This document shows positions 1 to 36,412 of a stretch of DNA of 40,351 bases, one piece after another. The notes under the pieces are model-generated. The model worked only from the letters and a program-made list of their open reading frames with translations. It made no database searches and was not told where the DNA came from. The translations under genes and the position numbers were made by a program. Positions within the stretch are counted from its first letter, which is position 1. Each line of letters starts with the position of its first letter. Origin of the DNA: a virus (lineage: Duplodnaviria > Caudoviricetes); the IMG/VR virus record IMGVR_UViG_3300037565_000137, positions 1-40,351 of that record. One strand, given 5' to 3'.

Positions 1-177
1 ATGAGCCACCAAAGCAAAGAAATTACTCACCAAATGGGCGCACTGCTCGGTATCACCGAAGAACAGTGTGGCCGCATTCAGGAAATCGCCGATGCGACAG
101 GGCGCAGCTTCAACGATGTTTGGCTGGACGATAAAGCACTGGCCGATGCAGGCATCCATCTGCCCGGCAGGGGGTGA
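1..177 (+). CDS. Small hypothetical protein (58 aa, Asp/Glu-rich)
   Basis: Read manually: MSHQSKEITHQMGALLGITEEQCGRIQEIADATGRSFNDVWLDDKALADAGIHLPGRG*; below the ORF-track cutoff; upstream RBS is outside the window. Confidence 0.55.
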   Translation: MSHQSKEITHQMGALLGITEEQCGRIQEIADATGRSFNDVWLDDKALADAGIHLPGRG

Positions 178-182
178 TAGAC

Positions 183-208
183 AGAGGGGGCACCGAAGCG
201 CCCCCTCT
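183..208 (-). terminator. GC-rich hairpin (11-bp stem, C-UUCG-G loop on the minus strand); no strong U tract
   Basis: Minus strand AGAGGGGGCGC-TTCG-GTGCCCCCTCT; the G.U pair and UUCG loop work only on the minus strand. Confidence 0.55.
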
Positions 209-246
209 CCATGCCCGAGGGCACATCTCTCAAGTTCCACACGAGT

Positions 247-280
247 GTTTCAATCCGCGCCCGCGCGATGCTCGCGAGAC
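247..280 (-). repeat. Solitary, degenerate type I-C-like CRISPR repeat unit (not an array)
   Basis: Minus strand GTCTCGCGAGCATCGCGCGGGCGCGGATTGAAAC: GTC start and GGGCGCG-GATTGAAAC end resemble I-C repeats; single copy, no cas genes. Confidence 0.5.
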
Positions 281-307
281 CAGCACACCAAGCCGATGGA
301 GGCCGAC

Positions 308-625
308 GTGCCTGACTATACAGATCACCAAATCAAAATCAACCGCGCCGCACGCCTTGCAGACGTGGGCCGCTATCCGTCTACATGCTCTGCGATGATG
401 CGCCACCTGCCCGCCGAATTGGTCAAGCGCGCCACCCCCGCCGAAATCAAGCAGGCCCGGCAAACGCTGGGCCTCACCGCCAAGCAACTCGCGCCCCTCT
501 TGGGCTACAGCCGCCCCGCCAGCGTCTATGATATCGAGGCGGGGCGCGAGCGGGCGAGCGGGGCCGTGGTGCGCCTGCTGCGCGCCTATCTCGACGGATA
601 CCGCCCGGCAGACTGGCCCGCTTGA
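308..625 (+). CDS. XRE-family HTH protein (Aca-like/antitoxin-like)
   Basis: GGAGG RBS before GTG 308; C-terminal TPAEIKQARQTLGLTAKQLAPLLGYSRPASVYDIEAGRERASGAVVRLL is an XRE HTH. Confidence 0.75.
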   Translation: MPDYTDHQIKINRAARLADVGRYPSTCSAMMRHLPAELVKRATPAEIKQARQTLGLTAKQLAPLLGYSRPASVYDIEAGRERASGAVVRLLRAYLDGYRPADWPA

Positions 626-2851: not shown

Positions 2852-3978
2852 ATCGTGTGCCCCATGTCGTTGGCGATCCGCGCGGCCACGTCGAGCCGCT
2901 GCGCCTCGGTCAGGTCGCGCCCGATTGCCATGACGGTCGTAAACTGAGCGTTGGCGAACTGGAGGCCACCTAGCAGCACCCCCAGCGTCATCGTGCGGTT
3001 GCCCCAAGAGGTGACGCTATACGTCGCACTGGTCGCCACAACGCTGGCATCTGACATATCGTCAAGCCACATCTCGGCCTGTGTCTTTGTGGCCCTGATC
3101 AGCATAACGCGCGTGTCAGGCAGATCATATTGGGCGTCAGACGTTCCAAAGGATGTGTTACCTGCGCCAATGAACCCTTCAAAGTTTATGCTGTTGACAG
3201 GCGCCCTTGCGACAACGCGACCTGAAATCACTCCGTCTGATGTTCCGAAAAGCGTTTTTTTCCCGCTGGTGTTTAGGGGGCGGACACCCAAGACAACCGT
3301 CAAAACATCCGCTGCCGAAAAATCGACGGTATCGGTTGTTCTCATGCCGTCATCAATACCGTCGGTCAGGATCACAAATTTTCCCGCGCCGTTCGTTTTG
3401 ACACGGGGGGCCTCGTCAATAGCCGCCTGCACGAAATGGTGCCCGTTGCCGCTACTGTCTGCCAGATACCGGCACGCATCATCGACTGCCGTTGCGTTGG
3501 TGGTCCCCGCTGCATCGGTGAATACATTGGACAAGTCATGCGGCTGGTAAAGACCGCCGGGGTAAGTGCCGCTGTCAAACAGGCTGGCGAGGTCCAGCAA
3601 GTCTAGCAGCGCCCGCCCCCGCGCCACGATGCTCGCGCCGCCCGTCAGCGCCGCGCTCACGCGCCCGGTCGCGCTGCCCCGTGCCGACACGCTGGCAGAG
3701 CCGATCACCGCCGCGCCCGCCGCTGCAATGGCCGATATCCGCGCCCGCACCGCCGCAGACGCCACCACCGCACCAGACGCCGCCGCAAGGCCCGAGACGA
3801 TGGCCCGCACGCTCGCGCTCGCCAGCATGGCAAACCGCACCGACACGACCCCCGAGGGCAAGCCCGGCGTGATCGTGAGCGTGCTGCCGTCCGACACGCC
3901 CAGGCTCACAGCCTCCTGCTCATACATCATCGGCACCGTGATCGTGTTGCCGAAACCGTCGGTGATGGTCAGAGGCAT
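2848..3978 (-). CDS. Putative tail fibre/receptor-binding protein with an Ala-rich stalk and a LamG/ConA-like C-terminal domain
   Basis: Ala/Ser/Gly/Val repeats, then LYQPHDLSNVFTDAAGTT...DSSGNGHHFVQ...DGIDD...IGRDLT, a pattern typical of phage LamG-like modules. Confidence 0.6.
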   Translation of the reverse strand: MPLTITDGFGNTITVPMMYEQEAVSLGVSDGSTLTITPGLPSGVVSVRFAMLASASVRAIVSGLAAASGAVVASAAVRARISAIAAAGAAVIGSASVSARGSATGRVSAALTGGASIVARGRALLDLLDLASLFDSGTYPGGLYQPHDLSNVFTDAAGTTNATAVDDACRYLADSSGNGHHFVQAAIDEAPRVKTNGAGKFVILTDGIDDGMRTTDTVDFSAADVLTVVLGVRPLNTSGKKTLFGTSDGVISGRVVARAPVNSINFEGFIGAGNTSFGTSDAQYDLPDTRVMLIRATKTQAEMWLDDMSDASVVATSATYSVTSWGNRTMTLGVLLGGLQFANAQFTTVMAIGRDLTEAQRLDVAARIANDMGHTI

Positions 3979-4292
3979 CAGGGATAGCTCCGCTCGACAG
4001 TGACGACGAAAGTCCGCGTCGAATTTGTCCCGAGAAGGCTCACAAACGACACGTCTCCGCGATAGACGCCCGGCACCCAGCCCGCCGTGGTTTCCTTGTC
4101 CTGAGCAAAGCTGATGGTGGCGGCGGCTCCGTCGATCACAGAGTTGTTAGTCGTGATCGTCGCGCCGCCCGGCCCCTCGAACGAGGTATTGATTTCGATG
4201 CCTTGGAGCGGGACCGGCTCGCCGTCCTTGTCGGTAAGCACGCCGGTCCATTCCAGCGTGTCACCGACTTTGGCTTGCAGCGCATTCGTCAT
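3978..4292 (-). CDS. BppU-like/Ig-like baseplate accessory protein
   Basis: KVGDT...L-x-D-x-DG-x-PV-x-L...G-x-Y-x-GDV pattern; tail cluster. Confidence 0.55.
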   Translation of the reverse strand: MTNALQAKVGDTLEWTGVLTDKDGEPVPLQGIEINTSFEGPGGATITTNNSVIDGAAATISFAQDKETTAGWVPGVYRGDVSFVSLLGTNSTRTFVVTVERSYP

Positions 4293-32604: not shown

Positions 32605-33002
32605 CCGACACCGCCCGCATGACCCTGAGCTACACCGACGAGAACGGCCAGACCGTGACCACGCCAGAGTTTACCGGGCGCGACCTGCAACGCGCGGCCG
32701 AGGCGGCGCGCAACGTCACGCCGATGAAACCCGATGCCGAATTCGACGCGGCCCGCGACAAGGCCTACCGCGTCACCGCAGACGAGCTGCGCCAGTTCAT
32801 CGAGCGGTTCGAGCGGCTGGAGGCCGAGAAGAAGGGCATCGCCGACCAGCAGAAGGAGGTGATGGCCGAGGCCAAGGCGCGCGGCTACGACACCAAGGTG
32901 ATGCGCAAGGTGATCGCGCTGCGCAAGCGCGACCGCGACGACATCGCCGAGGAAGAGGCGGTGCTCGAGATGTACAAGGAAGCGCTGGGGATGAATTCAT
33001 GA
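32601..33002 (+). CDS. GapR-like nucleoid-associated protein (DUF2312)
   Basis: ADELRQFIERFERLEAEKKGIADQQKEVMAEAKARGYDTKVMRKVIALRK..EEEAVLEMYKEALGM. Confidence 0.92.
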   Translation: MTDTARMTLSYTDENGQTVTTPEFTGRDLQRAAEAARNVTPMKPDAEFDAARDKAYRVTADELRQFIERFERLEAEKKGIADQQKEVMAEAKARGYDTKVMRKVIALRKRDRDDIAEEEAVLEMYKEALGMNS

Positions 33003-34105
33003 CCTTCCAGTCCCCGATCACCACCCCTGCCACCAGCATCCCGGCCAGCGAACTGCGCCGCGTGCTGCCGATCCTGACTCGCGTGGTCGAGCGCCGCTCG
33101 ACCATTCCCGTCCTGCACACGATCCGCCTGACCGCCACCGCCGGGGCCGACACGCTGCGCCTCATCGCCACCGATCTGGATATTGAGATCAAGGCGCGGA
33201 TCGAAACCATCACGGACCAGGACGTTGACCTCTGCATCCCCGCCCCGGTGTTTCACATGGCGCGCGACGGCGACACGCTCCACCTTGCCTGCGGCGAGAT
33301 CGCGGCGCGTATGCGCCTCGGCGCGCCGCCGGAGGATTTCCCGATGATGGCATGTCCCGGCCTTGACGACGCGCCAGGCATCACCCTGTCGGAATCGGCG
33401 CTGCACCGCCTGTTGCGCCTCGCACGGCACTGCGTCTCGACCAAGGAGACGCGCTATTACCTGAAAGGCGTGTTCCTGACCTCCCATCCCGAACGCGGCA
33501 CCCTGCGCGCCGTCGCGACCGACGGGCACCGGCTGGCGATGATCGACGACGACACGGCCCTGCCCGAGGGGTGGCCCAGCATGATCGTTCCGCGCCGCGC
33601 CGCCGACATCCTGCTGGCAATGACCAATCCGCAGGGCAACGCCGAGGTGACGCTACAGGCCACCGACACCCGGCTGCGCGCGGTGCGCGACGGGATGACC
33701 GTCACCACCAAGCTGATCGACGGCACCTTTCCCGACTACACCCGCGTGATTCCGAAGGCCGAGGCAACCTGCCGCGCCACGCTCAACCGCGCCGGGATCG
33801 CCCGCCTCGACCGTGCCTACCGGGCGGTCGCGGGAAAAACTATGGGCCGCGCCGCGAAACTTGACCCCGAGGCCGGGCAGATGATCATGACCGGCCCCGA
33901 CGCGCGCGTTACCGCGCCTCTCACGATCGACGGCGACCATGCCATCGGCTTCAACGCGGCCTACCTGTCCGAGCAGACCCGCATCACCCCGACGATCCGA
34001 ATCCGCTGGGCCAACGGCAGCGACCCGGCGATCATCGAGGCGGTGGACGAGATGGACCATCCCGAGCGCGACGCGCGCTGGATCCTCATGCCGATGAGGG
34101 TATGA
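32999..34105 (+). CDS. dnaN: DNA polymerase III beta sliding clamp homologue
   Basis: VERRSTIPVL, ATDLDIEI, ETRYYLKGV, VATDGHRLA, KLIDGTFPDYTRVIP, IGFNAAYL and ILMPMRV. Confidence 0.9.
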   Translation: MTFQSPITTPATSIPASELRRVLPILTRVVERRSTIPVLHTIRLTATAGADTLRLIATDLDIEIKARIETITDQDVDLCIPAPVFHMARDGDTLHLACGEIAARMRLGAPPEDFPMMACPGLDDAPGITLSESALHRLLRLARHCVSTKETRYYLKGVFLTSHPERGTLRAVATDGHRLAMIDDDTALPEGWPSMIVPRRAADILLAMTNPQGNAEVTLQATDTRLRAVRDGMTVTTKLIDGTFPDYTRVIPKAEATCRATLNRAGIARLDRAYRAVAGKTMGRAAKLDPEAGQMIMTGPDARVTAPLTIDGDHAIGFNAAYLSEQTRITPTIRIRWANGSDPAIIEAVDEMDHPERDARWILMPMRV

Positions 34106-35602: not shown

Positions 35603-36412
35603 ATGACGGGCCGTATTGTCTCATGGTTTTCTTGCGGCATTCCGAGCGCCGTCGCGACGAAGTTGGCCATCGCCAGCGGTGCAGATGTGACGATCTACAA
35701 CTGCGAACTCAAGGAGGAACACCCCGACAATAAACGGTTTCTGAAAGACTGCGAAGAATGGTTCGGGCAAGAGATTATTCAAGTCGGCAATGATGAATAT
35801 GGCCGGTCTGCTGATAGAGTGTTTCGGGACACGCGCTTTCTCGTAGGACCAAAAGGTGCGCGATGCACGGCAGAATTAAAGAAAGCCGTTCGGTGGGAAT
35901 ATGGAAGGCCAGACGATGTAATCGTGATGGGCTACACGTCAGAAGAAAAACACCGTGTTGATCGACTGCTAAAATCAGAACCACTTTTGCAGATGTGGCC
36001 AATTCTGATCGACCGCGACATGAGCCGAGAAGATTGCATGGCAGTTTTCGCCCGCACAGGAATTGAACTGCCCGAGATGTATCGGTTGGGCTACCGAAAC
36101 AATAACTGCATAGGCTGTGTAAAAGGTCAGGCTGGGTATTGGAATAAGATACGCCGCGACTTTCCAGACCGATTTTCGGAAATGGCCCGCATTGAGCGCG
36201 AGTTAGGACGGCAAATCTGCAAGCGCGAGTGGAATGATGATAACGGGCAGCGCCAATTAGAGCGCATTTATCTTGATGAGTTGCCGCCCGACCTCGGCTC
36301 TTACGAAGCCGAGCCAGAAGCGCAGTGCGGAATATTCTGCATGTTGGCTGAGGCGGACATAGATAGCGCAGATCGGCCCGGTGGTGGTGATGTGGGGGCG
36401 GATGACGAGTGA
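35603..36412 (+). CDS. PAPS-reductase-like PP-loop protein with an Fe-S Cys cluster
   Basis: VSWFSCGIPSA, EEHPDN, CTAELKK, GYTSEE..R, MYRLGYRNNNCIGCVK and CGIFC. Confidence 0.8.
   Translation: MTGRIVSWFSCGIPSAVATKLAIASGADVTIYNCELKEEHPDNKRFLKDCEEWFGQEIIQVGNDEYGRSADRVFRDTRFLVGPKGARCTAELKKAVRWEYGRPDDVIVMGYTSEEKHRVDRLLKSEPLLQMWPILIDRDMSREDCMAVFARTGIELPEMYRLGYRNNNCIGCVKGQAGYWNKIRRDFPDRFSEMARIERELGRQICKREWNDDNGQRQLERIYLDELPPDLGSYEAEPEAQCGIFCMLAEADIDSADRPGGGDVGADDE

Follow-up and report, generated by a model that had tools for sequence, protein, structure and literature searches.

A solitary type I-C CRISPR repeat unit linked to an unnamed small-protein family in a provirus is a candidate RNA anti-CRISPR

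The stretch of DNA analysed here (the window) comprises a complete provirus record, 40,351 nt long, in which head, tail and lysis genes lie on the minus strand and an integrase gene lies at the right end. A cassette at the left end, past the lysis genes, comprises a small gene (ORF1), a frame that joins half of a protein family named ORF X here to an HTH gene, and, between the two on the opposite strand, a solitary CRISPR-type repeat followed by two hairpins (Table 1). The nearest relatives of the HTH protein among named genomes belong to Rhodobacteraceae and Hyphomicrobiales, from which we infer an alphaproteobacterial host; spacer matching gave no convincing host among 571 spacers. The early region of the provirus also holds a DNA polymerase processivity-factor-like gene (32999-34105, plus strand) and a PAPS-reductase-like gene (35603-36412, plus strand).

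Table 1 Features of the left-end cassette and of the RNA predicted within it (window coordinates).
Feature	Positions	Strand	Remarks
ORF1	1..177	+	58 aa, pI 5.0, weak HTH_58 likeness, variable first operon slot
N-terminal half of ORF X (candidate anti-CRISPR family), shortened by fusion	308..433	+	homology to P0008 family
XRE-type HTH (Aca-like), fused in frame to ORF X, own start codon lost	434..625	+	
Predicted sigma-70 promoter TTGATT-16-TATAGT within 5' end of ORF X	315..342	-	predicted start near 308
Predicted 5' RNA leader, complementary to ribosome-binding site (298-302) of fused gene	281..308	-	from sequence
Type I-C pseudo-repeat	247..280	-	9-bp stem 280-259, extra base 258, 11-nt handle 257-247
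22-nt spacer-like linker after handle	225..246	-	no PAM-flanked target found
Small 5-bp hairpin	211..224	-	5-7 bp hairpin at same place in 5/5 non-array relatives
11-bp GC-rich hairpin, UUCG loop, predicted RNA 3' end	183..208	-	weak U-tail

A first-pass annotation of this DNA had read a 34-nt repeat-like unit at 280-247 of the minus strand as a solitary type I-C repeat, and its coordinates and sequence proved accurate. The class assignment also stands: the last 22 nt are identical to the array repeats of four loci (L044, L049, L050 and L064), and the handle is the same as in Rhodobacteraceae arrays next to cas5c-cas8c-cas7c, while the 5' arm differs from array repeats. The 3' 21-mer of the repeat was present in 26 metagenome loci, 10 of which held at least two exact copies, mostly at a spacing of about 66 nt. 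The handle GGATTGAAAC is present as a single copy in the 40,351 nt; across 200 windows simulated with a Markov-2 model, it arose 0.055 times per window, a looser GTY..handle pattern 0.02 times and an 18-nt I-C 3' pattern not at all (0), the patterns having been picked after the element had been seen. Rfam placed the repeat in CRISPR-DR9 below threshold (22.3 bits, E = 0.026, gathering score 45), so Rfam alone would have missed it. With one handle in the provirus, the unit is intergenic, lies on a mobile element and has neither a second repeat nor a cas gene nearby, as expected of a solitary repeat unit (SRU). These comparisons indicate that the window unit is a genuine crRNA mimic of type I-C and belongs to a known class. 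Lone I-C repeats are frequent in viral contigs (one pattern gave 123 loci in 28 of the 64 parts of the collection, mostly as a single match), and the class itself is therefore ordinary. Neither the repeat nor the repeat-linker junction had a match (0 matches) in a set of viral contigs from which near-identical records may be missing, and a DNA search of positions 1-660 in 50,697 phages returned matches at chance level only. A role of the repeat as a prophage att site was ruled out because the layout recurs within operons of other phages.

The structure around the repeat was partly as annotated. The repeat hairpin had been called degenerate; its stem is irregular (z = +0.67 for positions 290-240), but it is rebuilt rather than merely decayed, with nine base pairs and one bulge before a 12-nt tail. 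A longer 5' flank changes the predicted fold, and the tail is then 14 nt. The 38 nt at 246-209 are correctly placed but not all single-stranded, consisting of 22 nt and a 5-bp hairpin at 224-211, which may be a decayed second repeat. The 11-bp UUCG hairpin at 208-183 has the position and structure ascribed to it, and its reported preference for the minus strand was borne out by folding the 131-nt region (-62.6 vs -41.8 kcal/mol; z = -2.2 vs -0.5).

That the putative RNA would be antisense to the flanking genes had been raised as a caveat. The antisense layout is real, but a promoter scan found one minus-strand site, TTGATT-16-TATAGT at 342-315 (1 found vs 0.2 expected), and this promoter-like site of its own answers the objection. 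The RNA predicted from it would span about 130 nt of the minus strand, starting near 308 and ending with the hairpin at 183. The related loci L318, L319 and L320 have a promoter at the same position, with spacings of 18, 17 and 17 compared with 16 in the window. Lying behind the same -35 box at three different spacings, the antisense -10 boxes of the four loci gave P = 0.007, 0.008, 0.10 and 0.023 against shuffles (combined P = 1 × 10−4); they lie in unrelated sequence and are better than shuffles in 3 of 4 loci. The -35 box overlaps conserved K-I-N codons of ORF X and may be a by-product of them. A terminator scan gave no U-tailed terminator at the element (0 sites), and stem extension blurred the comparison of terminator tails. 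Judged from its sequence signals, the element is likely transcribed as its own small RNA.

The HTH frame had been given a start at 395, which is incorrect: the actual start lies near 308, behind a GGAGG, and the frame is a fusion. HTH homologues (n = 77) are mostly about 64 aa long vs 105 aa for the window frame. A protein termed P0008 shares the first 47 residues of the window frame and then continues into another C-terminus without an HTH; its family, whose members are stand-alone proteins of about 85 aa, is ORF X. The alignments indicate that in the window gene the N-terminal half of ORF X continues in frame into the HTH, with the junction at a T-(P/A)-A-E-I motif (434-448) common to both. 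The window sequence is present in pond metagenome runs, two of which span this end and may be its source; as the junction is spanned solely by runs of that kind, the fusion may be an assembly artefact. Stand-alone ORF X lies immediately before an HTH gene in L318, L319 and L320, and an ORF X remnant does likewise in L253. Members occur in the cultured species Paenirhodobacter populi (L319) and Stakelama tenebrarum (L320). We also noticed a plasmid copy in Limimaricola variabilis (L323:4001-4264, plus strand), which has a stop at a conserved tryptophan and no repeat nearby.

ORF X is predicted to be all-helical (pLDDT 82), and its members have pI values of 5.2-9.9, i.e., they are not uniformly acidic. 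No named Acr or other family matched it in Pfam, NCBIfam, PHROGs or PDB sequences, fold searches returned nothing at E 0.001 (the best hit, VIA, Z 5.4, lay among generic helices), the ESM Atlas gave no usable match, and its motif was not found in the part of the Gussow supplements (PMC7391736) that was available. The name under which P0008 is deposited, tRNA-ribosyltransferase, was ruled out (26.8 bits vs a cut-off of 350). ORF X was found in 0 of 401 Rhodobacteraceae genomes, in 1 of 381 genomes from the order of G408, in no phage records and, with P0008 as a single query, in no viral contigs; alignments were needed to find relatives where P0008 alone found nothing. Type I-C systems were present in 20 of the 401 sampled Rhodobacteraceae and in 31 of 341 genomes from the order of G408, and the sole whole genome with ORF X (G686) has no Cas5 gene.

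ORF1 had been proposed as the possible Acr, a suggestion that our data do not bear out: it has a single close homologue, resembles HTH_58 repeats and was absent from metagenome contigs, and the first operon slot is filled by other genes in L318-L320, the slot gene differing in every related locus. Sequence comparison instead identifies ORF X, the family of about 85 aa, as the partner that travels with the repeat. A type I-C handle lies at most 200 nt from ORF X in six of nine loci (the window, L317-L320 and L324) vs 1 of 113 HTH control loci, the control DNA (694 kb) holding one handle in total (Fisher P = 1 × 10−7; 2 × 10−6 without the window). The nine loci are those with flanks (the window and L317-L324), with L253 (remnant only) and L325 (a duplicate of L324) excluded, and 10 of 123 HTH controls were dropped for too little upstream DNA. 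The window and L319 are homologous, as are L318 and L320, giving about four lineages, so the loci are not independent.

The layout is conserved in related phages, as the window shares an antisense repeat upstream of ORF X with L318, L319 and L320. Two other arrangements occur: a sense mini-array with spacers of about 20-22 nt upstream of ORF X in L317, an AT-rich phage, and a sense repeat downstream of ORF X in L324, as in acrIC5-racrIC1. Inheritance of a single block would hardly account for three such layouts. The L317 mini-array lies inside an operon of eight small genes of no known function with an inverted-repeat promoter (L317:3387-6134, plus strand), a source of Acr candidates. In all five non-array loci, the RNA has the same order of stem, handle, linker of 6-22 nt, hairpin of 5-7 bp and strong hairpin. 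Phage stems vary in sequence yet all pair, and the handles follow variants known from host repeats. One extra base between stem and handle, giving a 12-nt tail, was seen in 5 of 7 phage units but in none of the 29 array rows (28 gave an 11-nt tail, and L043 did not fold) and in none of the 11 host solitary repeats. The other three ORF X loci (L321, L322 and L323) have no handle.

The RNA class to which the window unit belongs is already published; its added interest lies in the recurring unnamed partner gene and the off-register stem. Like RacrIC1, which lies beside acrIC5 in a Bifidobacterium pseudocatenulatum prophage (Camara-Wilpert et al. 2023, PMC10651486), the unit consists of one type I-C repeat that stands alone in a prophage and adjoins a small gene in an acr-type operon, and L324 even shares the sense-downstream order. 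Unlike RacrIC1 as described in the accessible part of that paper, the window RNA is antisense, has its own predicted promoter inside the partner gene, carries a stem offset by one base and is partnered by an unnamed all-helical family. It also resembles the Cracr RNAs, among them CracrIF with AcrIF24 and the I-C Cracr arrays of Neisseria phages (Liu et al., bioRxiv 10.1101/2024.10.29.618823), in having a pseudo-repeat, a spacer-like part and a closing hairpin, in occurring in single and array forms with short spacers and, for CracrIF-AcrIF24, in its close linkage to one protein family. Unlike Cracrs, whose defining feature is a PAM-flanked promoter target, the window unit gave no such target in the non-cognate hosts searched, and no marker protein for type I-C is described in the portion of that work available to us. 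The host type I-C crlRNAs (CreR, CRISIS; Shu et al., bioRxiv 10.1101/2024.12.27.630466) likewise combine, as far as that preprint was accessible, a degenerate stem with an intact handle and a 3' hairpin. Solitary repeats of this type also occur upstream of cas5c in alphaproteobacteria; these host repeats lie in cas loci, have an 11-nt tail in 10 of 11 cases and a local TTC target in 8 of 11, features that the phage units do not have. The SRU table of PMC10651486, as available, did not list the ORF X-linked units, nor was an ORF X-repeat pairing found in the literature covered, which included that table and the accessible PMC7391736 supplements; supplementary tables of 10.1101/2024.10.29.618823 and 10.1101/2024.12.27.630466 may contain some of the loci.

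The unit appears to work like RacrIC1 or a Cracr and is most likely an anti-CRISPR RNA. Our preferred explanation, to which we give slightly less than an even chance, is that the repeat RNA serves as a decoy for host I-C Cascade and that ORF X is its predicted protein anti-CRISPR partner. The window shows the repeat and its linker followed by the small and the closing hairpin, and these parts recur beside ORF X. From there, the predicted promoter inside the start of ORF X would yield the antisense RNA of about 130 nt, and host Cas5c, judging from published Cas5c biochemistry, would cut it at the stem or one base past it, leaving an RNA with an 11- or 12-nt handle. In the accessible part of PMC8524198, Cas5c cuts at the stem base and recognises the three bases after it, with tolerance described in one enzyme, which makes cutting of the off-register stem plausible. 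The handle would then recruit Cas5c and Cas8c, and the short linker, with 6-22 nt before the first hairpin, might seat few Cas7 subunits, so that Cascade parts would be locked in stunted, untargeted complexes. By association, ORF X might inhibit the same system and the HTH might repress the operon. In the window phage, where ORF X is halved and fused to the HTH, the RNA is perhaps all that survives intact of the anti-CRISPR parts. Counting against this explanation are the three of nine ORF X loci with no handle, the absence of a Cas5 gene from G686, the small share of sampled Rhodobacteraceae with type I-C, and the failure of ORF X to match any Acr family or structure or to be uniformly acidic.

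The chief rival to a decoy is that the RNA acts as a Cracr, guiding host Cascade to a TTC-flanked site in the promoter of cas5c, of creT or of a supervised defence and thereby silencing it, and that ORF X does for type I-C what AcrIF24 does for type I-F. We consider this rather unlikely, although the AcrIF24 precedent keeps it a strong contender, as most acrIF24 genes adjoin a Cracr with cas-promoter targets. The window layout is the same as that of CracrVA1 and host I-C crlRNAs in the accessible sources, down to the pseudo-repeat, spacer-like segment and terminator hairpin (with a weak U-tail); the linkers are diverse, the L317 spacers are of about 20-22 nt, and host guides carry spacer hairpins too. 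Alphaproteobacterial I-C loci moreover offer circuits that could be hijacked: among the 11 solitary repeats that hosts carry upstream of cas5c, 8 have a target with a TTN PAM within the same 700 nt, which served as our positive control. Among the phage linkers, that of L318 agrees at 9 positions of the seed with a site in L334 that has a TTT PAM and lies 90 nt upstream of cas5c, a match expected 0.12 times by chance. What favours a decoy over a guide is that self-targets were absent, that the 51 host regions gave none and that the 12-nt tail recurs in 5 of 7 units. Specifically, the window linker had no target in the phage or in 20 whole I-C loci, the phage linkers had no clear PAM-flanked target in the 51 host cas5c upstream regions (all from non-cognate hosts), and a pattern search with the window linker in 401 genomes gave 22 matches, 0 of them in the 20 I-C genomes and the best in a polyamine-binding-protein-like coding sequence. 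Linkers of 6-11 nt before the hairpin would also be short for a guide. Because the regions searched belong to non-cognate hosts, the missing targets prove little, and the guide reading survives. A 16-nt match with a TTC PAM in G206 was dismissed as chance, lying in coding sequence of a genome without cas5c. A variant in which host Cascade is steered by the RNA to the promoter that drives the phage operon, upstream of ORF1, in a CreTA- or CRISIS-like self-supervision, seems very improbable to us: host I-C crlRNAs act so, according to the accessible part of 10.1101/2024.12.27.630466, and the window starts at the first base of ORF1, leaving its promoter outside the record (one contig extends 117 nt further), but none of the five handle-bearing relatives with a visible operon promoter (L317-L320 and L324) has a PAM-flanked self-target. 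None of the seven phage linkers had, in its own locus, a self-target that adjoins a TTN PAM and matches at more than 9 of 15 positions.

Two further readings concern ORF X itself. The repeat might be an RNA-processing switch, with Cas5c cleavage of a sense repeat, or of an antisense RNA over the ribosome-binding site, enabling ORF X only in I-C hosts. In both the window and L319, the predicted leader extends over the ribosome-binding site, L322 has a sense I-C repeat-like hairpin (3960-3995, plus strand) with its handle turned into the ribosome-binding site of ORF X, and L321 has a type II hammerhead-like ribozyme (498-556, plus strand; E = 0.0025, with 34.4 bits falling short of the gathering score, 37) just upstream of its ORF X homologue, where others carry the repeat. 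Against a switch, the leader is missing in L318 and L320, where the predicted RNA begins at the repeat and leaves the ribosome-binding site uncovered, and the L324 repeat lies downstream of ORF X; we regard this reading as improbable. To a similarly small degree, we credit the view that the cassette in the window phage is a decaying remnant in which ORF X was broken by fusion and the RNA no longer matters. Besides the halved ORF X and the irregular stem, decay of other copies speaks for it (L323 has a premature stop, and L253 retains only a C-terminal remnant), but the handle, the promoter boxes and both hairpins are intact, and contig pieces from other pond metagenome runs covering the element show no changes.

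Returning to the decoy, a bolder form of it is conceivable, although we would sooner doubt than expect it: ORF X and the off-register pseudo-repeat RNA might form a two-part anti-type-I-C system, an I-C counterpart of AcrIF24 with CracrIF, in which an Acr family marks its own crRNA mimics, the extra base and the short hairpin-capped linker building a stunted Cascade that ORF X spares or stabilises. If true, ORF X could be used as bait for numerous other I-C Racr or Cracr RNAs that have diverged beyond the reach of repeat searches, the repeat form seen here being one that escapes similarity searches. For type I-C, the accessible parts of the cited papers hold one validated RNA anti-CRISPR, RacrIC1. 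The present locus gives a testable pair in which a candidate Acr family was found through its link to an RNA, makes the question of decoy vs guide directly testable for I-C, and might provide new off-switches for I-C Cascade-Cas3 tools.

Operons of the acr-aca type are driven from an inverted-repeat promoter, carry small genes that vary, and have an HTH gene at one end. The cassette had been described as acr-aca-like, and its relatives agree in all three respects, including an HTH gene in a small-gene operon with an inverted-repeat promoter; the window itself starts at the first base of ORF1, with the promoter outside. It departs from such operons in that no known Acr was recognised beside the HTH family and in that the window HTH is fused to half of ORF X. 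The expectation that HTH homologues would neighbour acr genes found no support among 96 proteins (from 323 ORFs), of which 0 were Pfam-recognised Acr proteins, Pfam having few Acr models. Aca10 and AcrIC3-8 are treated in the accessible part of PMC7913775. The HTH family ending in AYLDGYRP-DWP (L001-L042 and L192-L272) stands last in operons that have inverted-repeat promoters and are made up of highly variable small genes, and it is possible that this family is an unnamed Aca and a bait for anti-defence genes. Host CreR-like solitary repeats with TTN-flanked targets lie upstream of cas5c in L275, L276, L286, L288, L289, L342, L352 and L353, and some such repeats adjoin a very small ORF. In one viral contig (L243 and L102), about 13 kb separate a member of the HTH family from a lone I-C repeat. 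In Paracoccus, a degenerate type I-E-like mini-array of about five units (L195:4670-5010, minus strand) lies 500-800 nt downstream of an HTH gene of the same family.
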